Of a DNA stretch of 64,000 nt, positions 2,508 through 42,001 are shown in pieces (within the stretch, counting starts at the first letter, position 1; the number at the start of each line of letters is the position of its first letter). The stretch is from Oscillospiraceae bacterium (lineage in GTDB: Bacteria; Bacillota; Clostridia; Oscillospirales; CAG-272). A program made the position numbers and the translations under genes. The notes under the pieces are model-generated. The model had not been told where the DNA came from and ran no database searches. It saw only the letters and a list, made by a program, of their open reading frames with translations. Location: assembly GCA_015064385.1 (NCBI GenBank), contig SVSI01000002.1, positions 65,315 through 129,314 of the forward strand, written 5' to 3'.

Positions 2508-3991
2508 TATTTGTGATAAAGCTTTTTCGTCTGATATTCGGGACTGCAGGTGACGTTTGCGCCAAGCTTATTAAACACGTTTTCGTCAACCTTTGAGAGT
2601 ATCACGGTAGAATGTACCTCGCTCTTTTTGAGCATATCGACCGCCTTCAGCGCTTTCTTTGCGTTCTCGTCGGTCGCGGCACATATTGCAAGCGCGATAA
2701 GCACCTCGTCGGTATGAAGACGTGGATTTCGATTTCCCATGTGACTTACCTTAAGCTCCTGTATCGGCTCGATAACCGTAGGAGAGATAAGGTGTATCTC
2801 GTCGTCTATTCCCGCAAGAGTTTTAAGAGCGTTGAGCAGAGCGGCAGACGATGCACCGAGAAGAGAGGTCGTTTTTCCGGTCACCACTCTTCCGTCGGGA
2901 AGCTCTATGGCAACTGCAGGACTCTGCGTCCTTTCGGCAACGCTTGCTGCGGCGACGCACGGCTTTCTCGTTTCGGTAGAAATATCAAGCGTGCTCATTA
3001 AAAGCTCGAGCTTTGATATTTCACCCGACGACGCAAGTCCCTGCTTATATGCACAGCAGGTCTTAAGATACCTGCGAACTATCTCCGCCTTTGATGCGGT
3101 GCATACTGCGTCGTTATCGATTATAGCGTCACCCGCCATATTTACGCCCATATCGGTCGGGCTCTTATAGGGGCAATATCCGAAAATCTTATTGAACATC
3201 GCCTCGAGAACGGGGTAGATTTCTATATCTCTGTTGTAGTTTACAGTAGTCTTTCCGTACGCTTCAAGATGGAAGGGGTCTATCATATTGACGTCGTTAA
3301 GATCTGCAGTTGCCGCCTCGTATGCAAGGTTTACGGGATGCTTTAGCGGCAGATTCCACACCGGGAAGGTCTCGAATTTGGCATATCCCGAGCGGATACC
3401 TCTTTTATTGTCGTGATAAAGCTGTGACAGGCAGGTTGCCATCTTTCCGCTTCCCGGACCGGGCGCGGTAACGACGACGAGCGAGCGGCTCGTTTCTATG
3501 TAATCGTTTCTTCCGAATCCCTCGTCGCTTACGATAAGCGGAATATTCGACGGGTAATCGGGAATTGTATAATGCTTATACACCTTAATGCCGAGAGAAA
3601 CAAGACGCTTTTCAAAAAGGTCTGCCGCGCGTTGGGACTCGTACTGCGTAATAACGACGCTTCCTACGTACAGTCCGATACCGCCAAAGGCGTCAAGAAG
3701 GCGAAGGAGCTCCTGATCGTAGGTGATTCCGAGATCTCCCCTTCTTTTATTTTTGGCAATGGCGTCTGCGCTGATAACGATGACTATCTCTGCCTGATCC
3801 TTGAGCTCAAGAAGCATCTTGACCTTACTGTCGGGCTCAAAGCCGGGGAGAACTCTCGATGCGTGATTATCGTCGAAAAGCTTGCCGCCGAACTCGAGGT
3901 AAAGCTTTCCGCCGAAATAGTCGATACGCTCCTTTATCTTTGCAGACTGAAGCTCTATGTATTTTTCATTGTCAAATCCTTTTTGAAACAT
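2507..3991 (-). CDS. DUF1846 / UPF0371 family protein
   Basis: MFQKGFDNEKYIELQSAKIKERIDYFGGKLYLEFGGKLFDDNHASRVLPGFEPDSK is the characteristic N-terminus of UPF0371. The start is moved to the conserved MFQ, 19 codons inside the track ORF. Confidence 0.8.
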   Translation of the reverse strand: MFQKGFDNEKYIELQSAKIKERIDYFGGKLYLEFGGKLFDDNHASRVLPGFEPDSKVKMLLELKDQAEIVIVISADAIAKNKRRGDLGITYDQELLRLLDAFGGIGLYVGSVVITQYESQRAADLFEKRLVSLGIKVYKHYTIPDYPSNIPLIVSDEGFGRNDYIETSRSLVVVTAPGPGSGKMATCLSQLYHDNKRGIRSGYAKFETFPVWNLPLKHPVNLAYEAATADLNDVNMIDPFHLEAYGKTTVNYNRDIEIYPVLEAMFNKIFGYCPYKSPTDMGVNMAGDAIIDNDAVCTASKAEIVRRYLKTCCAYKQGLASSGEISKLELLMSTLDISTETRKPCVAAASVAERTQSPAVAIELPDGRVVTGKTTSLLGASSAALLNALKTLAGIDDEIHLISPTVIEPIQELKVSHMGNRNPRLHTDEVLIALAICAATDENAKKALKAVDMLKKSEVHSTVILSKVDENVFNKLGANVTCSPEYQTKKLYHK

Positions 3992-7742: not shown

Positions 7743-8897
7743 ATGTTTTACGAGAATTATATTGAGAAAAACAAAGCTTGGATCGACGAAACGTTTGAAA
7801 AGCTCGATAAAAAGCTCGCACGCGTAGCAGTTAAAAGCCGTGACAAGATCCCATATACCACCGTTGACGGAGTTCACAACGATCAGTCACAGGATAATAA
7901 GATCTTCGGCTGGACCAACGGCTTCTGGGGCGGACTTATGTGGATAATGTACGAGCAGACCGGAAACGAGGAGTACAAAAAGACTGCCCTTCGCTCCGAG
8001 GAGCTTATGGACAAGGCGTTTTATGACGTTCAGCGCTTCCACCACGACGTTGGCTTTATGTGGCACATCCTCTCAGGTGCAAATTATCGCCTCACCGGAG
8101 ATACGGCCGCACGCAACCGCAACCTTCTTGCGGCAATGACGCTCGCTTCGAGATATAAGGAAAACGGCGGATATATCCGCGCATGGAACGGCACTTGGTT
8201 CGGCCGCAACAACGACGGCTGGACTATCATCGACTGTATGATGAATATTCCACAGCTTTTCTGGGCGTCAAAGGAGCTCGGCGACGACCGTTTTGCACAG
8301 ATCGCTATGGCTCACGCCGATATGGCAATGCGTGATCACGTACGCGAGGACGGCTCGATGAACCACATCGTAGTTCACGACGTTGAAACGGGTGAGATGA
8401 TCGAATCGCTCGGCGGACAGGGCTACGGCGTTGGCTCTACCTGGTCGCGCGGCGAGGCGTGGGGACTTTACGGATTCGTACTTGCCTATATGCACACGGG
8501 CGAGGAGCGTTATCTTGACACCGCAAAGAAGATCGCTCACTACTTTATCGCAAACGTAGCAGATAACGATTATCTCCCGCTGGTTGACTTCAGAGCTCCC
8601 GAAGAGCCGGTGCTTTACGACTCTACGGCGGGCGTTATCGCGGCGTGCGGACTTATCGATATCGCAAAGAACGTCCCCGAGCACGAGCAAAAGCTCTACA
8701 TCTCCGCGGCAATAAAGATTCTTAAGGCGACGGAAGAAAAATTCTGCAACTGGGAAGAAAACGAGGATTCTATCCTTCAAATGGGTACCGAGATGTACAC
8801 AAAGGGTATTCATATGCCGATAATCTACGGTGACTATTTCTTCGCAGAAGCTATCTCCAAGCTTAAGGGCTCGGAGTTTAATCCTTGGCTTAAATAA
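7743..8897 (+). CDS. GH88 unsaturated glucuronyl hydrolase, copy 1
   Basis: WTNGFWGGLMW, HHDVGFMW, IIDCMMNIP, STWSRGEAWGLYGF and GDYFFAEA are conserved blocks of GH88 (UGL) enzymes. Confidence 0.85.
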   Translation: MFYENYIEKNKAWIDETFEKLDKKLARVAVKSRDKIPYTTVDGVHNDQSQDNKIFGWTNGFWGGLMWIMYEQTGNEEYKKTALRSEELMDKAFYDVQRFHHDVGFMWHILSGANYRLTGDTAARNRNLLAAMTLASRYKENGGYIRAWNGTWFGRNNDGWTIIDCMMNIPQLFWASKELGDDRFAQIAMAHADMAMRDHVREDGSMNHIVVHDVETGEMIESLGGQGYGVGSTWSRGEAWGLYGFVLAYMHTGEERYLDTAKKIAHYFIANVADNDYLPLVDFRAPEEPVLYDSTAGVIAACGLIDIAKNVPEHEQKLYISAAIKILKATEEKFCNWEENEDSILQMGTEMYTKGIHMPIIYGDYFFAEAISKLKGSEFNPWLK

Positions 8898-8928: not shown

Positions 8929-10071
8929 ATGTTTTACGAGAACTATATCGCAGAAAACAAGGCGTGGATCGACGAAATGGTCGCAAAGCTTGACAAAAAG
9001 CTCTCGCGCGTTGCAGTAGAGAGCCGCGACAAGCTCCCCTACACTACCGACGCAAACGGCAAGCACGACAACTGCCTTGATCCCGCTACCGGCAAGAACG
9101 TAACCTGGTGGACCAACGGCTTCTGGGGCGGACTTATGTGGCTTATGTATGAAAAGACGGGCAACGAGGAGTACAAGAAGACGGCAGAGCGCTCGGAAGA
9201 GCTTCTTGACGGATATCTTGCAAACTTCCAGAGTCTCGACCACGACTCGGGCTTTATGGAGCACATTCTCGCAGGCGCCAACTACCGTCTTACCGGAAAC
9301 GAGAAGTCCAAGAACAGAAACCTTTACTGTGCGGCTGCTCTCGCATCGAGATACAATCTTTCGGGCGGATTTATCCGCGCTTGGAACTGGGAAGCAGGAC
9401 TCACCATCATAGACACTATGATGAACCTTCCTCAGCTCTACTGGGCATCGTCCATCACGGGCGACACCCGCTTCAAGAAGATCGCTATGGCTCACGCCGA
9501 TATGGCAATGGTTGAGCACATTCGTCCCGACGGAAGCGTAGTTCACATCTGCTCGCACGATATTGAGGACGGACACGTGATCGAAACCCGTCAGGGTCAG
9601 GGTTACGCAGTCGGCTCGACCTGGTCGCGTGGCGCATCGTGGGCTGTTTACGGATTCGTTCTTTCCTATCTCCACACCGGAAAGCAGGAATATCTCGAGG
9701 CATCCAAGAAGGCGGCTCACTATTTCATTACCGGTTGTGCGACCAACGGATGGCTTCCGCCCGTTGACTTCCGCGCTCCCGAAGAGCCCGTTTGCTACGA
9801 CTCGACCGCCGGTGCTATCACCGCTTGCGGACTTATCGAGCTCGCAAAGGTTCTCCCCGAATACGAGAAGCCGATGTACTTAAAGGCAGCTTTCGAGATC
9901 CTCAAGGCAATGGAAAAAGAATTCTGCAACTGGGAAGACTCGACCGACTACATTCTCGGTATGGGTACCGAGGCGTACGGAAGAAAGGTACACGTACCGA
10001 TCATCTACGGCGACTACTTCTTTGCAGAGGCAATTCTCAAGCTCGCAGGCAGCGAGTTTAATCCCTGGTAA
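8929..10071 (+). CDS. GH88 unsaturated glucuronyl hydrolase, copy 2 (tandem paralogue)
   Basis: Same conserved blocks as copy 1. The N-termini are nearly identical (MFYENYIAENKAWIDE vs MFYENYIEKNKAWIDE). Confidence 0.85.
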   Translation: MFYENYIAENKAWIDEMVAKLDKKLSRVAVESRDKLPYTTDANGKHDNCLDPATGKNVTWWTNGFWGGLMWLMYEKTGNEEYKKTAERSEELLDGYLANFQSLDHDSGFMEHILAGANYRLTGNEKSKNRNLYCAAALASRYNLSGGFIRAWNWEAGLTIIDTMMNLPQLYWASSITGDTRFKKIAMAHADMAMVEHIRPDGSVVHICSHDIEDGHVIETRQGQGYAVGSTWSRGASWAVYGFVLSYLHTGKQEYLEASKKAAHYFITGCATNGWLPPVDFRAPEEPVCYDSTAGAITACGLIELAKVLPEYEKPMYLKAAFEILKAMEKEFCNWEDSTDYILGMGTEAYGRKVHVPIIYGDYFFAEAILKLAGSEFNPW

Positions 10072-10107
10072 AAAAACTTTTCGGCAAAGCCGAAAGATTT
10101 TGACAAT

Positions 10108-10138
10108 AAACCACGCCCTCAATGGGCGTGGTTTTTGT
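10108..10138. terminator. intrinsic terminator hairpin, copy 1 of a duplicated hairpin
   Basis: AAACCACGCCC-TCAA-TGGGCGTGGTTTTTGT, 37 nt after the GH88-2 stop. Confidence 0.75.
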
Positions 10139-10293
10139 ATAAAAACACCGCGAGCGGCGTTTAGCAGTTTCGCTGTCGGACGGCAGTCCGACTTTTGGCA
10201 AAGCCAAAACCGCAAACTGCGCTCTTCGATTGAAGTTTGCTAAATGACGGTGAAGATGCGTTAACGGTTTGCTTTGCAAACCTAGAACCGATT

Positions 10294-10327
10294 AAAAAAC
10301 CACGCCCTCGATGGGCGTGGTTTTTGT
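10294..10327. terminator. intrinsic terminator hairpin, copy 2 (near-identical direct repeat of 10108-10138)
   Basis: AAAAAACCACGCCC-TCGA-TGGGCGTGGTTTTTGT, with one loop difference from copy 1. It lies next to the stop of the convergent tcdA. Confidence 0.7.
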
Positions 10328-14627: not shown

Positions 14628-15320
14628 ATGGGAACCAAATTACTTATCATTGAAGACGACAGCAATATAGCAGAGCTTATAAAGGTATATCTCACCAAGG
14701 AGGGATATGAGACCAAGATCGCATCCGACGGTGTTGAAGCGGTAAATTTCTTTAAGATGTTCGAGCCCGATCTCGTGCTTCTTGACATTATGCTTCCCCG
14801 CAAGGACGGTTGGCAGGTATGCCGTGAGATCCGCGAGATCTCTACCAAGCCGATCATCATGGTAACGGCAAAGGGCGAGGTATTTGACAAGGTACTCGGT
14901 CTTGAGCTTGGTGCAGACGACTTTATCGTAAAGCCCTTCGATATGAAGGAGCTCTCCGCCCGTATCAAGGCAGTTCTCCGCAGATACAGCGCACACGACA
15001 ATCAGAACGATAACGAGGTAATAAAATTCGAGAACATCGAGATCAGTCTCCAGAAATACGAGCTCAAGCTTAACGGCAAGAGCACCGATATTCCTCCGAA
15101 GGAGCTCGAGCTTCTCTATTTCCTCGCGGCAAACTACAACAGCGTATTTACCAGAGACAAGCTTCTGGACAAGGTTTGGGGATTTGACTACCTCGGCGAT
15201 TCTCGTACCGTTGACGTTCATATCAAGCGTCTTCGTGAAAAGCTCGAGGGCGTTTCGGACAAGTGGCAGCTTAAGACCGTTTGGGGAGTCGGCTACAAAT
15301 TCGAGCTTCTCCAGCCGTAA
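14628..15320 (+). CDS. OmpR/PhoB-family response regulator
   Basis: Receiver domain (LIIEDD...DLVLLDIMLP...TAKG) plus winged-helix C-terminus (RTVDVHIKRLREKL...TVWGVGYKF). AAAGGAG RBS. Confidence 0.9.
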   Translation: MGTKLLIIEDDSNIAELIKVYLTKEGYETKIASDGVEAVNFFKMFEPDLVLLDIMLPRKDGWQVCREIREISTKPIIMVTAKGEVFDKVLGLELGADDFIVKPFDMKELSARIKAVLRRYSAHDNQNDNEVIKFENIEISLQKYELKLNGKSTDIPPKELELLYFLAANYNSVFTRDKLLDKVWGFDYLGDSRTVDVHIKRLREKLEGVSDKWQLKTVWGVGYKFELLQP

Positions 15321-15364
15321 CTTAGGGCTCTGCCCTCAACGCCGCTTGCGGCGTTTTGAACCCG

Positions 15365-15410
15365 CCAAGAAACTTTTTATAAAAAGTTTCTTGGAACTTC
15401 AAAAATTTTA
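15365..15410 (-). repeat. palindromic intergenic element, copy A (reverse orientation)
   Basis: Hairpin CCAAGAAACTTTTT-AT-AAAAAGTTTCTTGG, followed by AACTTCAAAAATTTTAAT, which is the reverse complement of the family flank TTAAGTAAAGTTTTTGAAG. Confidence 0.7.
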
Positions 15411-15422
15411 ATAAAAAAAATT

Positions 15423-15446
15423 AAGAGCAGGAATTTTCCTGCTCTT
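15423..15446. terminator. palindromic terminator hairpin T1 (left end of the AT-rich cassette)
   Basis: AAGAGCAGGAATTTTCCTGCTCTT abuts the XRE stop codon (15447-15449). On the minus strand it is followed by a T-run. It is near-identical to 16707-16737. Confidence 0.75.
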
Positions 15447-15680
15447 TTATATTCTTTTTTCGATTTCCTTTACAATGTCACTCATATTGATACCAAGGGC
15501 TATACTTATACGGTAAAGCGTTTCGATAGTAGGTTTTCTCGCACCACACTCAATAGCGCTGAGATGCGTTCTGCCGATTCCCGCAAGTCCGCTTAACACC
15601 TCTTGCGATACTTTTTTGTTTTTCCGACAATATGCAATTGCCTGACCAACTATTTTGGGATCAAGAAATTCTTCCGTCAT
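15447..15680 (-). CDS. XRE-family helix-turn-helix transcriptional regulator (77 aa)
   Basis: MTEEFLDPKIVGQAIAYCRKNKKVSQEVLSGLAGIGRTHLSAIECGARKPTIETLYRISIALG is a Cro/C1-type HTH. GAGGTG lies 6 nt before ATG 15680. The track ORF start at 15752 has no RBS. Confidence 0.8.
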   Translation of the reverse strand: MTEEFLDPKIVGQAIAYCRKNKKVSQEVLSGLAGIGRTHLSAIECGARKPTIETLYRISIALGINMSDIVKEIEKRI

Positions 15681-15735
15681 TATATCACCTCGGATATATT
15701 GTACGTTCTTTTTTACAAAAATATGACTACATATG

Positions 15736-15764
15736 TTGACAATTGAACACATTTGTGTTATAAT
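15736..15764 (+). promoter_or_regulatory. consensus sigma-A promoter of the membrane-protein/DUF5067 operon
   Basis: TTGACA (15736-15741), 17-nt spacer, TGtTATAAT (-10 at 15759-15764). It overlaps the region upstream of the divergent XRE gene. Confidence 0.7.
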
Positions 15765-15785
15765 ACATTATCTTGCAGGTGTTAT

Positions 15786-16184
15786 ATGAGAAAAATCAAT
15801 AAATTTCTTTATTTCTGCTTGTTAAACTGTATTTTTGCCCTCCTTACAGGGGTAGCAATATATGTCTTGCTTCGTGAAAATACCTATATTAACAAGCTCA
15901 TAAATTTTCAAAAGATAGGCGTTTCGTCTGCCTTTGCAGACTTTTTGCGCTTTTATTTCGTTGATGCCTTGTGGTCATACGCTTTAACTTTTGCGCTTTC
16001 TATATTTATAAGCGAAATTATGGCAGGGGTTATATCAACTGTATTTGCAACATCTTGGGAGCTATTGCAGCTCTGCGGCTTTGTTGCGGGAACGTTTGAC
16101 ATCATTGACCTCATAATGTATCTTTCGGCAATCGTTGTTGCCGTCTTGATAATATATCTATATAAAAGGAGATTTTCACAATGA
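15786..16184 (+). CDS. small polytopic membrane protein (about 4 TM), function unknown
   Basis: MRKINKFLYFCLLNCIFALLTGVAIYVLL... has four hydrophobic segments and a C-terminal GTFDIIDLIMYLSA motif. AT-rich codon usage. It overlaps the next gene by 4 nt. Confidence 0.6.
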   Translation: MRKINKFLYFCLLNCIFALLTGVAIYVLLRENTYINKLINFQKIGVSSAFADFLRFYFVDALWSYALTFALSIFISEIMAGVISTVFATSWELLQLCGFVAGTFDIIDLIMYLSAIVVAVLIIYLYKRRFSQ

Positions 16185-16705
16185 AAACAACACTCACCAA
16201 ACGAATTTTAAGTATTATCGCCGTTATTTCACTGCTTCTTGCTTTTGGACTTTTTGCTATTGCAAGTTCTGACAGTGAGGGTAGTTCTGACGATCAGGGT
16301 TCCGGAGATGCTTCTTCCGACAGCGGCAAAGACTCAAACATCTACTACTACAACGTAAATATTAAAAGCTGTCGTCTTGCTAAAGATTATAGCGGCAATC
16401 CCATTGCAATTATTACTTATACTTTCACCAACAATGCTGAGGACGCCACCTGCTTTATGTACGCATTTAACGATGCGGTATATCAAAACGGTGTTGGCTT
16501 AAACAAATGTTATTTGACATCAGACACCGCAAATTATTCCTCCGAAAACCAAACCAAACAAATCAAAACGGGAGCAACATTGGACGTAGAGGTCGCTTAT
16601 GTCTTAAATGATGAAACTACAGACCTTGAGGTTGAAGTAAAACGCCTTATAGATTTCTTTGATAAAGATGAAATGATAACAAAAACTTTTAAGATTGCCA
16701 AATAA
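16181..16705 (+). CDS. secreted/anchored DUF5067-like protein
   Basis: Signal/anchor ILSIIAVISLLLAFGLFAIASS, a Ser/Asp-rich linker, then IKSCRLAKDYSGNPIAIITYTFTNNAEDATCFMYAF..VYQNGVGL, which resembles DUF5067-type domains. AAAGGAG RBS. Confidence 0.6.
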   Translation: MKTTLTKRILSIIAVISLLLAFGLFAIASSDSEGSSDDQGSGDASSDSGKDSNIYYYNVNIKSCRLAKDYSGNPIAIITYTFTNNAEDATCFMYAFNDAVYQNGVGLNKCYLTSDTANYSSENQTKQIKTGATLDVEVAYVLNDETTDLEVEVKRLIDFFDKDEMITKTFKIAK

Positions 16706-16706
16706 A

Positions 16707-16737
16707 AAAGAGCAGGAATTTTTCCTGCTCTTTTTTC
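16707..16737. terminator. palindromic terminator hairpin T2 (right end of the AT-rich cassette)
   Basis: AAAAGAGCAGGAATTTTTCCTGCTCTTTTTT starts right after the DUF5067 stop. Same stem as T1, with one extra T in the loop. Confidence 0.8.
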
Positions 16738-16772
16738 GTAGCAACGTTGACCTCTGCAACAGATTTTCTTTT

Positions 16773-16823
16773 AAGTAAAGTTTTTGAAGGGTTTGGGAAA
16801 CTTTTTACAAAAAGTTTCCCAAG
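16773..16823 (+). repeat. palindromic intergenic element, copy B (forward orientation)
   Basis: AAGTAAAGTTTTTGAAGGGTTTGGGAAACTTTTTACAAAAAGTTTCCCAAG, i.e. the family flank plus a 14-bp stem hairpin. Confidence 0.7.
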
Positions 16824-16842: not shown

Positions 16843-18201
16843 CTAATTCTTAAGACTCTGAAGAGGTGCGGGGATTCGTCCGCCGCGCGAGATAAATTTT
16901 GCGGGGCTCTTCGTATTATTTACCGGCATAACGGGACCGCTTCCGAGAAGTCCGCCAAACTCAAGCTCGTCTCCGACATTCTTTCCGATAGCGGGAATAA
17001 CTCTTACGGCGGTCGTCTTGGAATTGACCATACCGATAGCCGCTTCGTCGGCAATTATGGCAGAAATGACCTCTGCGCTCGTATCTCCGGGGATAACTAT
17101 CATATCAAGTCCGACCGAGCATACTGCGGTCATTGCCTCGAGCTTTTCGATCTTAAGATCACCGCTTCTTGCTGCCGCGATCATACCCGCGTCCTCGGAT
17201 ACGGGAATAAACGCACCGGAAAGTCCGCCAACGTGCGAGGACGCCATTACTCCGCCCTTCTTGACAGCGTCGTTGAGAAGAGCAAGCGCCGCCGTAGTTC
17301 CGTGAGTACCGCAGGTCTCAAGTCCCATTTCCTCAAGGATATGCGCGACCGAGTCGCCTACTGCGGGGGTGGGTGCGAGCGAAAGGTCAACTATTCCGAA
17401 CGGAACGCCGAGCATCTTCGACGCTTCGGTTCCGACGAGCTGACCCATGCGGGTGATCTTGAATGCCGTTTTCTTTATTATATCGGCAACCTGAGTGAGG
17501 TCGCCGTCCGGACATTTTTTGAGCGCCGCGTGTACGACACCGGGGCCCGAAACTCCTACGTTGATAACGCAGTCGGGCTCACCGACTCCGTGAAAAGCTC
17601 CCGCCATAAAGGGATTATCCTCGGGTGCATTACAGAAAACGACGAGCTTCGCGCAGGCAATGGAATCTCTGTCTGCGGTTATCTCTGCCGCTCTGCGAAC
17701 GACCTTACCCATCATTCCGACGGCGTCCATATTTATACCCGATTTCGTAGTTCCGATATTTACGGACGAGCAAACGCGAGTCGTGGTGGCAAGTGCCTCG
17801 GGAATAGACTCGATAAGCGCCTTGTCTCCCGCCGAAAAGCCCTTATGTACGAGAGCGGAGTAACCGCCTATAAAATTAACTCCGACCGCCAGAGCGGCTT
17901 TTTCGAGGGTATGTGCGTACTTTACGGGATCCCCACCGCTTACAGCCACGAGCATAGCAATGGGTGTTACCGAAATACGCTTGTTTATGATCGGTATTCC
18001 GTACTTTGCCTCGATCTCCTCGCCCGTTTTCACGAGATTTCCCGCAAGACGAATTATCTTATCATATATCTTCTCGCAAGACTTGTCGATATCGCTATCA
18101 GCACAGTCGAGAAGAGATATACCCATGGTTATCGTTCTTATATCAAGATTTTCTTCCTGAATCATGGTTATGGTTTCCATGATATCGGTAGTATTCAGCA
18201 T
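16843..18201 (-). CDS. UPF0210 / DUF711 family protein (PFL-like fold)
   Basis: [26 protein letters not shown]...INKRISVTP... is the characteristic UPF0210 N-terminus. It is paired with an upstream ACT-domain UPF0237 gene, as in many Firmicutes. Confidence 0.8.
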
Positions 18202-28067: not shown

Positions 28068-29792
28068 TCAGCCTCTCCATGCACTTACCGTTCCGTCAAC
28101 ACAGATTACCTGCGTAACCGTTGGATCGCTTATCCAAAATCTATCCAAATCTATTTCAGCCCATTGCTCCTTTGTTCCGTTGAACATCACACTTTTGATA
28201 TTGGGACATCCGCTAAACGCACCGGATTCAATGTGCTTTACACCGGCTCCTAACGTCAAACTTGTCAGATTATAGCAACCAGAGAACGCATGATAGCCGA
28301 TACTCTCCACGCTGTCCGGTATAGTTATGCTCTTGAGTTTTTCAAGACCGAAGAATGAATCTGTATCAAGACTCTTTACGCCATTTTCTATCACCAAACT
28401 CGTAACATTGTCGCAACCCGAAAATGCGTCGTATCCAATACTATTTACACTGCCGGGTATTGTCAAACTTGTAAGATGGTCACAACTATAAAACGCCCAC
28501 GCCTCAATACTTGTCACGCTTTCTGGTATATCTATACTAGTTATACCGCAATTCCTAAACGTCTCGTCACCAATACTCGTAACTCCGTACGGAATTTTTA
28601 CGCTTTTAAGCTTAAAACATCCCGTAAATGCCCGCACCCCAATACTTGTCACACTATCAGGAATATCTACGTTCACAAGATTTTTACAATCATAAAATAT
28701 AGCCGCGCCAATTCTGGTAACTCCGTTTGGTATGGTTATAATTGTAAGACCTGTACACCCATGAAACGCGGAATCACCAATACTTGTAACTCCTTCGGGT
28801 ATAGTTATTCCCGCAAGACTCGTACATCCGTTAAATGCGAAATCACCTATGCTTGTAACTCCTTCGGGTATAGTTATTCCCGTAAGACTCGTACATCCGT
28901 TAAATGCGAAATCACCTATGCTTGTTATATTATCGGGTATCTTTATACTCGTAATATTTTTACATCCCGAGAAAGACCTGTATTCCAATTTGCCGCCAGT
29001 TACAGTCACAGTGGTCAGTGACGCAGGAAGATAGCGGGGGTTGTGCACTAACTTGTCCTGATACCGCTGTGACACCTTGGTTCCGCCGTCATACATACTC
29101 GATCCAAAGATATATGAAAAAAGTGCCTCTTCGCTTCCGTATTCTGCGTCAATGCTGCCGCCAACAAAAGGAACTGTCATACTTTCAAGTCCGCCACAAC
29201 CGTCAAAGGCACTTTCGCCGATACTGTTTACATTATCAGGTATAGTTATATTTGTAAGACCCACGCACTTTTCAAATGCAGAAGTGCCTATACTCGTTAC
29301 GTTACTCGGTATGGTTATATTTGTAAGACTGCCACACCCCGAAAACAAGTAATTTTCAATGCTTGTCAAATTGTTAGAAAGAGTTATGCTTTTAAGATTT
29401 TTGCACCCATAAAATGCAGAATTACCGATACTCGTCACACCGTCCGGTATCCTTATGCTCACGAGACTGCTGCAACCATCAAACGCAAATCTACCAATAC
29501 TCGTTACGCTATCGGGGATAGTTATGTTTTTAAGACTAATACAGTCTTGGAACGCATAGTCCCCGATGACAGCCACCCCTTCGGGTATATCATAAGAGTT
29601 TTTTTCTTTGTTTTCAACACCGGTAATTTCATAACCGCGAGAAGTTTTCTCGTATTTATAATCAGACAACAGCGCAGGATCGATATATACGTCCAAGCTT
29701 GCGTCATCTGTGTTACACCCTGTCAAAAACACACCAATCAGTACCGCAACGCAAAAAAAGAATAAAACTGTTAATCTTAAAGTCGATTTCAT
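28068..29792 (-). CDS. BspA-type leucine-rich-repeat surface lipoprotein
   Basis: Lipoprotein signal MKSTLRLTVLFFFCVAVLIGVFLTGC. About 20 repeats of the ~23-aa unit ITIPdsVTSIGdsAFxGCtsL. AAGGAG RBS. Confidence 0.85.
   Translation of the reverse strand: MKSTLRLTVLFFFCVAVLIGVFLTGCNTDDASLDVYIDPALLSDYKYEKTSRGYEITGVENKEKNSYDIPEGVAVIGDYAFQDCISLKNITIPDSVTSIGRFAFDGCSSLVSIRIPDGVTSIGNSAFYGCKNLKSITLSNNLTSIENYLFSGCGSLTNITIPSNVTSIGTSAFEKCVGLTNITIPDNVNSIGESAFDGCGGLESMTVPFVGGSIDAEYGSEEALFSYIFGSSMYDGGTKVSQRYQDKLVHNPRYLPASLTTVTVTGGKLEYRSFSGCKNITSIKIPDNITSIGDFAFNGCTSLTGITIPEGVTSIGDFAFNGCTSLAGITIPEGVTSIGDSAFHGCTGLTIITIPNGVTRIGAAIFYDCKNLVNVDIPDSVTSIGVRAFTGCFKLKSVKIPYGVTSIGDETFRNCGITSIDIPESVTSIEAWAFYSCDHLTSLTIPGSVNSIGYDAFSGCDNVTSLVIENGVKSLDTDSFFGLEKLKSITIPDSVESIGYHAFSGCYNLTSLTLGAGVKHIESGAFSGCPNIKSVMFNGTKEQWAEIDLDRFWISDPTVTQVICVDGTVSAWRG
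28783..28920. repeat. 69-bp tandem duplication inside the LRR gene (2 units, 1 mismatch)
   Basis: Units 28783-28851 and 28852-28920 differ only at CCCGCAAG vs CCCGTAAG. They encode TSIGDFAFNGCTSL(T/A)GITIPEGV twice. Confidence 0.9.
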
Positions 29793-32050: not shown

Positions 32051-32097
32051 CGGAAAACTTTTTGGAAAAAGTTTTCCGTACTTTCAAAAACTTTACT
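32051..32097 (-). repeat. palindromic intergenic element, copy C1 (reverse)
   Basis: CGGAAAACTTTTT-GG-AAAAAGTTTTCCG followed by TACTTTCAAAAACTTTACT (the flank in reverse complement). It sits in the dnaK-dnaJ spacer. Confidence 0.7.
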
Positions 32098-32110
32098 AAA
32101 ATATTTTTAA

Positions 32111-32160
32111 TCAAAGTTTTTGAGGGTTTTAGGGGACTTTTTTTCAAAAAGTCCCCTAAG
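32111..32160 (+). repeat. palindromic intergenic element, copy C2 (forward)
   Basis: TCAAAGTTTTTGAGGGTTTT followed by the hairpin TAGGGGACTTTTT-TTC-AAAAAGTCCCCTA. Confidence 0.7.
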
Positions 32161-35959: not shown

Positions 35960-36131
35960 AAACCGGCAGGAGATAGCATATAAATGCTGACCGAAGGAGT
36001 AAATCTCTCAGGTGTTGCGTCTCTGGCAACGTGGACTGTCGGCGGATAAAACTCTGAAGAAGCCCGTTAGATCGGGGGCCGAAGGTGCAAAGCTGCGTTT
36101 TGCAGTCAATCTCTCAGGCAAAAGGACGGAG
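35960..36131 (+). promoter_or_regulatory. tandem glycine riboswitch (two aptamers)
   Basis: Aptamer 1: GGAGA..ACCGAAGGAGUAA..CUCUCAGG...GGAC. Aptamer 2: CUCUGAAGA..GGGGGCCGAAGGUGCAA..CUCUCAGGCAAAAGGACGGAG. Both match the conserved glycine-aptamer cores. An alanine/glycine symporter lies downstream. Confidence 0.8.
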
Positions 36132-36279
36132 TCAAAGTATTTAATATTTAGGCGTATTTTCGCGTCTCTATATTCATTTACCGTGTCTTTATACTTTTAC
36201 TTAGGGCCTTGCTCTTTCGGCGAGACCTTGTTTTATTTTGCGATCCATAACATAACACATATAAAAGGAAGGAAGAAAA

Positions 36280-40927: not shown

Positions 40928-40967
40928 AAATAATAAAGTCACGGCAAAAGCCGTGACTTTATTATTT
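40928..40967 (-). terminator. ssrA terminator
   Basis: AAATAATAAAGTCACGGC-AAAA-GCCGTGACTTTATTATTT, directly after the tmRNA 3' end. Confidence 0.8.
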
Positions 40968-40968
40968 A

Positions 40969-41325
40969 TGGACCCGGGGAGAGTCGAACTCCCGTCCGAA
41001 AACCTCTTAATATGACCTTCTACGAGTGTAGTTTGTCTGTGATCTCCCGACACTGTGCGGACAAACAAAACACAGTATCGGCAGCCGTCTTATGCGTGAG
41101 AGCTGCGACGACGAGCTCACCCTTCACGTTCATCACTGCATGACGTTCAGTTTCGGGCCGTGATACTCCCGAAAGGAACGGGCTGCCTTAGGCAGCGGCA
41201 CCGCTTACGCGGCCTGAGCTACTCTATTGTTAGCGTTTAATTTTAATGTTGGGCAGATTTAAGAGTTTACCCCGCTCTACTCGCTTATCATACCTCAAAA
41301 TCCCCGTCGAAACCTTTACGGGCCC
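40969..41325 (-). ncRNA. ssrA: transfer-messenger RNA (tmRNA)
   Basis: The minus strand starts GGGCCCGTAAAGGTTTCGACGGGGATTT and ends GGACGGGAGTTCGACTCTCCCCGGGTCCA. The acceptor stem has the G3:U wobble and there is a T-arm. The predicted tag reading frame GCT AAC AAT AGA GTA GCT CAG GCC GCG TAA gives ANNRVAQAA. It lies adjacent to smpB. Confidence 0.9.
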
Positions 41326-41883: not shown

Positions 41884-41937
41884 TTGAGAGAAACTTTTTG
41901 AAAAAAGTTTCTCTCAAACTCTCTTCAAAAACTTTTA
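41884..41937 (-). repeat. palindromic intergenic element, copy D1 (reverse)
   Basis: TTGAGAGAAACTTTTT-GA-AAAAAGTTTCTCTCAA followed by ACTCTCTTCAAAAACTTTTAT (the flank in reverse complement). Confidence 0.7.
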
Positions 41938-41945
41938 TAAACTAT

Positions 41946-42001
41946 TTAAGTAAAGTTTTTGGGGAGGTTTGGAACCCCTTTTTCCAAAAAGGGGTTCCAA
42001 G
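41946..42001 (+). repeat. palindromic intergenic element, copy D2 (forward)
   Basis: TTAAGTAAAGTTTTTGGGGAGGTTT followed by the hairpin GGAACCCCTTTTT-CC-AAAAAGGGGTTCC. Confidence 0.7.

Follow-up and report, generated by a model that had tools for sequence, protein, structure and literature searches.

A three-gene cassette encoding an XRE-family regulator, a membrane protein with four predicted transmembrane helices (4-TM) and a DUF5067 protein was examined in a 64,000-nt stretch of contig SVSI01000002.1 from an Oscillospiraceae bacterium (the window; coordinates are positions within it and refer to the forward strand unless marked). The three genes lie between the stop codons of an OmpR-type response regulator gene (14628-15320, +), which forms the left flank, and a UPF0210/DUF711 gene (16843-18201, -), which is convergent with it and forms the right flank. 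On balance, the block is best read as an old, fast-evolving accessory operon that regulates itself, has long resided in one uncultured Oscillospirales/Eubacteriales genus and is at times lost, most likely by repeat recombination, from an unstable, palindrome-rich gap. From left to right the block comprises half of a split palindromic element, a hairpin, the cassette, the same hairpin again and the other half of the element. Much of this anatomy had been proposed in a first-pass annotation made from the sequence, and it holds: gene calls and Pfam matches support the three-gene block, the promoter matches consensus as stated, the G+C content is low, the same hairpin ends the block on both sides as the terminator of an outward-facing gene, the element halves lie outside the hairpins, and none of the three genes encodes a transposase or an integrase.

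Occupied and empty states of one site

Genome contigs were searched for UPF0210, which gave 80 loci, and further cassette lineages were obtained by exact-protein look-ups of cassette homologues (fetched relatives are labelled L001-L187). The gene order RpoC / ACT / UPF0210 ... response regulator / YchF was kept at only two of the 80 loci, L001 and L002, and neither carries the cassette. The L002 gap measures 174 nt and contains the response-regulator terminator, an arm of the split element, one hairpin (AGAGTAGG; AGAGTAGGAAAATTTTCCTACTCT), the inverted partner arm (arm') and the outer right hairpin of the element (HP2), with the outer left hairpin (HP1) missing. The two arms adjoin around this single hairpin, an empty site of the kind that the first-pass annotation had predicted. 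In L001, the gap holds HP1, an arm, one hairpin, a TCGATATG-plus-hairpin block, a degenerate arm' and, in place of HP2, a TauE/SafE permease gene. On the right of its single hairpin, L001 has a stretch homologous to the one that lies right of the right-hand hairpin of cassette-bearing L186, the pattern expected after recombination between two hairpin copies.

Cassettes were recovered in L091, L092-L094, L183, L184 and L186, and the same site is occupied in the window and in at least four other lineages (L091, L092-L094, L183 and L186). Relative to the window, the cassette proteins are 83% (XRE), 56% (4-TM) and 65% (DUF5067) identical in L091 and 82%, 52% and 78% identical in L092-L094, while the flanking proteins of L091 and L092, the lineages with full-length flanking genes, are 92-99% identical. 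As a within-species check, the cassette was present in 11 of 11 contigs encoding the exact flank proteins of the window. A metagenome contig search with the response regulator returned only orthologues of ≤84% identity from other genera, none of which had the cassette or UPF0210 downstream. The first-pass annotation had held that a block of host-like composition in all relatives would overturn it; the cassette is missing from L001 and L002 and its composition is atypical, and the shared context was found in the at least four other lineages that carry it at the same site.

The gap has also gathered other sequence. The L001 permease gene (L001 7401-8138, +) encodes 245 amino acids of the TauE/SafE family (Pfam E = 2e-23), has host-like G+C content and stands beside UPF0210 in this sister only, giving a third gap state. 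Units of TCGATATG plus a short G+C-rich hairpin follow the AGAGTAGG hairpin both in the cassette-bearing L186 (1290-1435) and in the cassette-less L001 (8150-8240, - strand), are absent from the window and L002, and appear to be another small repeat family. Many of the metagenome contigs that carry the locus (L081-L090 and L183-L186) span just 1-4 kb and stop at the flanking hairpins or repeats or within them, as would be expected if the repeats, or allelic diversity at the cassette, made the assembly graph branch.

The hairpin at both ends of the cassette

The hairpin AGAGCAGGAATTTT(T)CCTGCTCT occurs twice, as AGAGCAGGAATTTTCCTGCTCT at 15424-15445 and as AGAGCAGGAATTTTTCCTGCTCT at 16709-16731, with zero occurrences expected by chance. 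The left copy would terminate the XRE gene and, taken with its A-run and T-run (AAGAGCAGGAATTTTCCTGCTCTT, 15423-15446), has bidirectional capacity; the right copy would terminate the DUF5067 gene. Both sit 1-3 nt past the stop codon of the outward-facing gene and are predicted to fold at -15.7 to -19.4 kcal/mol (z = -4.5 to -6.9); across genomes, the palindrome has 10-bp inverted arms around a 4-7-nt spacer. Ten-pair stems and T-runs placed directly after stop codons identify them as predicted intrinsic terminators.

In L092 and L183, the repeat runs 12-13 nt beyond the hairpin into the XRE 3' end (the shared XRE portion is 8-13 nt overall, within direct repeats of 23-40 nt), and in the window the right copy with the TTTTTCGT that follows it matches the XRE-side terminator of L091. 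Because the repeats reach the XRE 3' end and the right copy has this counterpart in L091, the right hairpin is taken, by sequence comparison, to be a duplicate of the XRE-side terminator, and the pair to be a direct repeat and not a terminal inverted repeat. The two hairpin copies of any one genome agree, and a compensated C/T change sets genomes apart (the window has the C-type; L092, L183 and L186 have the T-type), a pattern that would imply gene conversion or repeated recombination.

One contig, L184 (1398 nt, coverage 1.35x), runs from a DUF5067 end and hairpin into XRE ... and finishes with a second DUF5067 end and hairpin; its repeated ends differ at 2 of ~123 nt. It could represent a tandem duplication or a chimeric assembly across the ~37-nt repeat; a circular form is not claimed, given ends with no exact overlap and coverage of 1.35x.

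Module ends in other genera were searched for a duplicated hairpin and carry unrelated terminators instead. At one of these loci, L098, the same 12-nt string, CCAAAACAAAAA, precedes both otherwise unrelated module terminators (2235-2250 and 3485-3500), which may be chance in A-rich sequence. Elsewhere in the window there is a second duplicated terminator-like hairpin, AAACCACGCCCTC[A/G]ATGGGCGTGGTTTTTGT, at 10105-10138 and 10294-10327, the copies being 94% identical and in direct orientation. This pair brackets a 155-nt non-coding stretch full of small hairpins of the form NNNNGGC-AAA-GCCNNNN (e.g. 10075-10093, 10195-10212 and 10267-10283), and its layout is the same as that of the cassette, a duplicated terminator around an insert.

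Divergence, selection and exchange between species

Trees of the flanking genes gave the topology ((window,L001),L002),L091,L092. With the cassette present in the window, L091 and L092 and absent from L001 and L002, this tree calls for two losses or for three gains at one site, and two losses would be the more parsimonious history. The number of synonymous substitutions per synonymous site (dS) was 0.6-1.6 for the flanking genes and ranged from 1.9 to saturation for the cassette genes, and the ratio of nonsynonymous to synonymous rates (dN/dS) of the cassette was 0.05-0.26. On the strength of these low ratios, and of a dS at or above that of the flanks, all three cassette genes are judged to be functional, old and under purifying selection; the XRE alleles are 82-90% identical, with dN/dS of 0.05-0.10. 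A recent landing of the cassette is unlikely, since the site is identical across lineages and the synonymous divergence is equal to or greater than that of the flanking genes. For the pair of window and L184, dS is 0.38 in the 4-TM gene and saturated in the DUF5067 gene, and the UPF0210 fragment of L186 is only 82% identical to that of the window. Both observations point to mosaic alleles, and so would indicate recombination between species.

The G+C fraction is 0.32-0.41 over 15300-16800 compared to 0.48-0.59 in the flanks, and the cassette genes have the three lowest third-position G+C fractions (GC3) among the 53 open reading frames of the window (0.32-0.38; mean, 0.53; standard deviation, 0.07). 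A switch in lysine, leucine and asparagine codons had also been reported in the first-pass annotation. The lysine and leucine shifts are clear (AAA:AAG, 21:4 in the cassette vs 30:137 in flanking genes, p = 1e-10; TTA+TTG, 14/38 vs 1/193), and the asparagine shift did not reach significance (9:10 vs 34:56, p = 0.45). With its atypical composition and patchy distribution, the cassette resembles a horizontally acquired islet and is nevertheless old at its site. Low G+C content would be a property of the module and no proof of foreign origin or recent arrival, because in all genomes and contexts examined it is more AT-rich than its neighbours.

Regulator, promoter and operon proteins

The leftmost gene (15447-15680, -) encodes a 77-amino-acid XRE-family helix-turn-helix protein, the presumed repressor of the divergent operon (HTH_3, PF01381; E = 3e-11; 43.5 bits compared to a gathering cut-off of 23 bits). 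The operon promoter (15729-15764, +), TTGACA-17-TATAAT with an extended TG, is a 12/12 consensus match (-35 at 15736-15741, TG at 15756-15757, -10 at 15759-15764). It is overlapped by two palindromic boxes, ACATATGT at 15729-15736 and ACACATTTGTGT at 15747-15758. Six alleles with proteins now only 44-56% identical share a promoter and boxes (ACATATGT, ACATTTGT) that hardly vary, a pattern consistent with repression by the XRE protein, for which the boxes are likely operators.

The first gene of the operon (15786-16184, +) encodes the 4-TM protein of 132 amino acids, with the conserved motifs RENTYI, DxLW, WE..Q and GTFD..D..MYLSA. Its AlphaFold2 model (mean predicted local distance difference test, pLDDT, 82.5) has four long helices, and a Foldseek search of the model against the PDB returned nothing below E = 2. 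The window protein has no Pfam match, VanZ and DUF2809 included. In its family, which comprises 2375 representative clusters, 6 of 11 members match DUF2809 weakly, one matches VanZ and there are further weak matches elsewhere, with relatives scoring ≤20 bits (E = 1e-3 to 0.04) against cut-offs of 30.1 bits for VanZ (PF04892) and 29.3 bits for DUF2809 (PF10990). The protein is accordingly described as a remote, sub-threshold relative of VanZ/DUF2809, by resemblance only. Of the two family assignments put forward in the first-pass annotation, DUF5067 is confirmed, and the DUF2809 likeness survives only as these sub-threshold matches of relatives.

The second gene (16181-16705, +) encodes a DUF5067 protein of 174 amino acids, predicted to be exported or membrane-anchored (PF16729; E = 7e-26; 91 bits over residues 36-154 compared to a gathering cut-off of 27 bits). 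Its start codon overlaps the 4-TM stop codon in ATGA, which suggests that the two genes may be translationally coupled. The AlphaFold2 model (pLDDT 82) consists of an N-terminal helix, a disordered acidic Ser/Asp/Gly-rich linker and a beta-sandwich, and the top Foldseek matches were YcdA 4r4g (E = 8e-5), YxkC 9a4z, 4les, 2llg and YjhA 3cfu. NCBIfam searches of the cassette proteins returned nothing specific, and a PHROGs search gave one family match, of uncharacterised function.

Two familiar classes do not describe the block. An integron gene cassette is defined by attC, intI and attI; here there is no integrase, the hairpin is a perfect palindrome with a T-run, and the genes have their own promoter and regulator. 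Nor is it a type II toxin-antitoxin system of the HipB/XRE kind, the XRE gene being divergent and its partners coding for a membrane protein and an exported protein that lack toxin domains.

The surrounding palindromic repeat

The split element has a reverse half at 15365-15418 and a forward half at 16769-16822, both members of the repeat family that makes up the back-to-back pairs noted elsewhere in the window by the first-pass annotation. In the left half, HP1 is a perfect palindrome, CCAAGAAACTTTTT-AT-AAAAAGTTTCTTGG (15365-15394), followed by the arm aacTTCAAAAATTTTAATAAAA (15395-15418), the inverted partner of 16769-16792. The right half consists of arm' TTTTAAGTAAAGTTTTTGAAGG followed by HP2, TTGGGAAACTTTTT-AC-AAAAAGTTTCCCAA. 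Each half is thus an arm (TTTTAGTAAAGTTTTTGAAG) joined to a perfect palindrome with the invariant tip CTTTTT-NN-AAAAAG, and the two halves are inverted with ~70% mean column identity, in the manner of terminal inverted repeats. Intact copies occupy the dnaK-dnaJ gap (32051-32159; in the order hairpin, arm, TATT, arm', hairpin) and the gap between a TP_methylase-family gene and smpB, just upstream of smpB (41884-42000), and both lack the central G+C-rich hairpin and any cargo.

Across 11 half-copies, 9 of 14 stem pairs of the outer hairpins change on both sides and 97% of cells pair, a level reached by 0 of 500 shuffles. The intact element folds as three consecutive hairpins (z ~ -7.5), its arms pairing as the central one. 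Rfam searches at gathering and permissive thresholds found no family for the repeats or hairpins, with chance-level matches only. Within ~1 Mb of fetched loci the repeat was found only in the window's own genus, with three loci in the 64 kb of the window, and no target-site duplication was found at 15365/16822, 32051/32159 or 41884/42000. HP1 itself varies as a precise indel, with the window, L001 and L092 having it and L002 and L091 lacking it, so that single hairpins of the repeat come and go independently. A spacer of variable length (16732-16768 in the window) separates the right hairpin from the right arm: it measures 0 nt in L002 and L091, ~20 nt in L092 and L183, and ~135 nt in L186, where it consists of the TCGATATG-plus-hairpin units.

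The module in other genera and its possible function

A small helix-turn-helix gene, a gene for a 130-146-amino-acid membrane protein and an overlapping DUF5067 gene recur together at unrelated loci in other genera (L095, L098 and L101), with none of the genus repeats and no duplicated hairpin. At L102, an XRE gene accompanies a double-DUF5067 lipoprotein with no membrane protein. DUF5067 matches of 292-295 amino acids (P0016, P0019 and P0021) were considered as 4-TM/DUF5067 fusions and rejected, as they are tandem double-DUF5067 proteins, one with a lipobox. A phage or plasmid origin of the cassette was likewise rejected, with only distant Listeria DUF5067 matches and none in IMG/VR.

In a full-text literature search, DUF5067 turned up in only four papers, in no case in the title or abstract. 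As a family related to DUF5067, DUF4352 provides a lead for function, not a test of it: it is the scaffold of the Mycobacterium protein Mpr, which is membrane-bound and tightly repressed and gives phage resistance (PMC12596739, PMC9262609). Tentatively, the cassette may be an XRE-repressed module for envelope protection, directed at some outside agent such as a phage or a membrane-active antimicrobial. Conserved across Oscillospirales, the module is a tractable target for the function of DUF5067; it could also help to assign a function to the 4-TM protein family, which has >2000 clusters and no Pfam model.

Weighing the explanations

In the favoured account, of a resident operon lost by repeat recombination, the operon occupies the middle of the genus-specific triple-hairpin repeat, within the gap between the convergent response-regulator and UPF0210 genes. 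The XRE protein probably binds the two palindromic boxes overlapping the promoter and keeps the coupled gene pair repressed. As this pair encodes a membrane protein and an exported, anchored protein, the VanZ/DUF2809-like 4-TM protein and the anchored DUF5067 beta-sandwich would both act at the cell envelope. The XRE-side terminator and a few bases of the XRE 3' end would have been copied to the far end of the operon, so that the cassette came to be bracketed by the 23-40-nt direct repeats. Recombination or replication slippage between these repeats would remove the cassette precisely and leave one hairpin, as in L001 and L002, and may also create tandem copies (L184), while alleles would be exchanged between species by homologous recombination. 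The duplicated terminator thus most likely mediates precise loss of the cassette and possibly its amplification.

Several observations weigh against this account. The right end of L091 has a different, unrelated hairpin, so that the duplication is not universal. The contrast of one with two hairpins is symmetrical, and the structure alone is silent on insertion vs deletion; the outgroups lack the adjacency of the response-regulator and UPF0210 genes, and the ancestral state is a parsimony reconstruction from five to seven lineages. L002 lacks a spacer behind its hairpin, resembles a pristine palindrome and may never have held a cassette, and the higher dS of the cassette could be explained by weak codon bias or by replacement with a foreign allele. 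A protective function draws little from database searches: in PADLOC only the XRE protein matched, to generic helix-turn-helix/control-protein models, with no match for the other two; IMG/VR contained no relatives of either effector protein; and the phage and plasmid collections gave only distant DUF5067 matches, in four phage and three plasmid records, all from Listeria.

The presence of two near-identical hairpins with the cassette and of exactly one without it would also be expected of a non-autonomous, site-specific integrative cassette (CIME/IMEX-like), in which the G+C-rich palindrome is an att-like core and a recombinase acting in trans integrates a circle at the single hairpin and can excise it. 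Identical core repeats at both ends of occupied sites and one at empty sites were seen in the window, L092, L183 and L186 compared to L001 and L002; the match of the copies within genomes and their difference between genomes, the breaks inside the hairpin in contigs from two samples and the second duplicated-terminator pair at 10105-10327 fit as well, and the L184 order of DUF5067 3' end, hairpin and XRE is that expected of a tandem or circular junction. Against this, none of the three genes of the block is a recombinase, the hairpins of L091 differ at its two ends and lack the att-like arrangement, and loop lengths differ within a genome (TTTT/TTTTT in the window; ATCAAAA/GAAAA in L092), which is unusual for a crossover region. 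In addition, the module terminators are unrelated at the two ends in other genera, the alleles are deeply diverged in place, and the 2 differences in ~123 nt and 1.35x coverage of L184 disfavour a true circle, a chimeric assembly across the 37-nt repeat being possible. Site-specific integration is therefore considered unlikely. A bolder version, in which the terminator palindrome is the attachment site of undescribed recombinase-less cassettes that move in and out of terminator hairpins, 10105-10327 being a second example, and the XRE/VanZ-like/DUF5067 module is a new inducible envelope defence, is quite improbable; a hairpin serving as attachment site would, if true, be a new way of moving genes.

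The other two explanations concern how the block arrived, and both had been raised in the first-pass annotation, the one as a self-contained module landed in a preferred insertion site and the other as cargo of a miniature inverted-repeat transposable element (MITE). Recent horizontal acquisition from a low-G+C donor, with the middle of the palindromic repeat as the preferred insertion site, would account for the lowest GC3 in the window and the clear shift in codon usage, for the empty site in L002, for the other insertions in the gap (the TauE permease gene of L001 and the 135-nt repeat block of L186) and for the window/L184 dS of 0.38 in the 4-TM allele, below flank divergence. It conflicts with the occupation of the same site in at least five lineages at a cassette divergence equal to or greater than that of the flanks, with the cassette in all 11 contigs with exact flank proteins and with an AT-rich module in every genus and context; the block carries no mobility genes and has no close relatives on phages or plasmids. 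A recent arrival is accordingly given little credence. As for a MITE, with the reverse/forward repeat pair as its terminal inverted repeats and the three genes as cargo, the halves are indeed inverted and belong to a multi-copy, genus-restricted family with three loci in 64 kb, the intact copies of which are compact (~110 nt). However, none of the three loci has a target-site duplication, the two intact copies have neither the central G+C-rich hairpin nor cargo, and no second cargo-bearing copy was found. Halves and hairpins vary independently (HP1 missing in L002 and L091, HP2 missing in L001), the module occurs in other genera without these repeats, and the cassette alleles are far more diverged than the flanking repeats, which together make the MITE explanation extremely improbable.

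Other features of the window

Upstream of the block, the response-regulator gene has its own intrinsic terminator (15340-15357, +), read from the sequence as CGCCGC-TTGC-GGCG followed by TTTT, which is also present in L002. Two tandem paralogous genes at 7743-8897 and 8929-10071 (+) encode 384 and 380 amino acids and contain repeated segments of 71-83% DNA identity. A BspA-type leucine-rich-repeat protein (28068-29792, -; LRR_5, E = 1e-170) is encoded by DNA with a 69-nt periodic repeat and a GC3 of 0.377, the fourth-lowest in the window. A glycine riboswitch (36044-36139, +) and a transfer-messenger RNA gene that adjoins smpB (40966-41325, -; tag peptide ANNRVAQAA) are ordinary housekeeping features.

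Comparison with known systems

Indel islets bounded by short direct repeats are lost by RecA-dependent recombination or replication slippage, and cis-mobilizable elements (CIMEs), att-flanked elements that lack an integrase, have been described in Streptococcus thermophilus. The cassette resembles both in being bracketed by direct repeats of 23-40 nt, one of which is left at cassette-less sites, and in having no recombinase inside it; it differs in that its repeat is an intrinsic terminator palindrome and not a tRNA or gene end, that no parent integrative element is known for it, and that the repeat is absent from L091. REP/BIME, BOX, RUP and Correia-type repeats and MITEs are intergenic palindromic repeats, and the repeat of the window is similarly short, multi-copy, intergenic, lineage-specific and built of hairpins, with stems kept by compensatory changes and positions between housekeeping genes. 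Unlike them, it is a triple hairpin with the invariant CTTTTT-NN-AAAAAG tip, lacks a target-site duplication, matches no Rfam family and has no transposase associated with it in the window.

Among the proteins, the 4-TM family shares with VanZ/DUF2809 a length of ~130 amino acids, four helices, a motif pattern of the E..Q ... D..D type and recurrent sub-threshold Pfam matches, whereas all members fall short of the Pfam gathering score and the window protein itself gives no match. The DUF5067 protein has the same fold by Foldseek as Bacillus subtilis YcdA, YxkC and YjhA and DUF4352-type extracytoplasmic lipoproteins, and is likewise predicted to be exported in a Gram-positive cell, but sequence identity is 9-19%, the window protein lacks a lipobox cysteine and the comparators are themselves uncharacterised. 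With Mpr of Mycobacterium smegmatis (PMC9262609, PMC12596739) it shares membrane association and a beta-sandwich domain of a related family, and the tightly repressed promoter of Mpr has a presumptive parallel in the XRE-controlled promoter here. Unlike Mpr, it is a DUF5067 protein whose DUF4352 match (E = 0.041) falls below the cut-off, lacks an N-terminal nuclease region, belongs to a bacterium of another phylum and has a 4-TM protein and an XRE regulator as partners.

As a repeat-bounded variable islet, the locus belongs to a kind of feature already known, built around a module that is itself uncharacterised. Related species preserve its occupied, empty and possibly tandem states, with the duplicated terminator as a probable recombination handle, and it would thus offer a natural case of the maintenance, exchange and precise loss of a small accessory operon among uncultured gut Clostridia.

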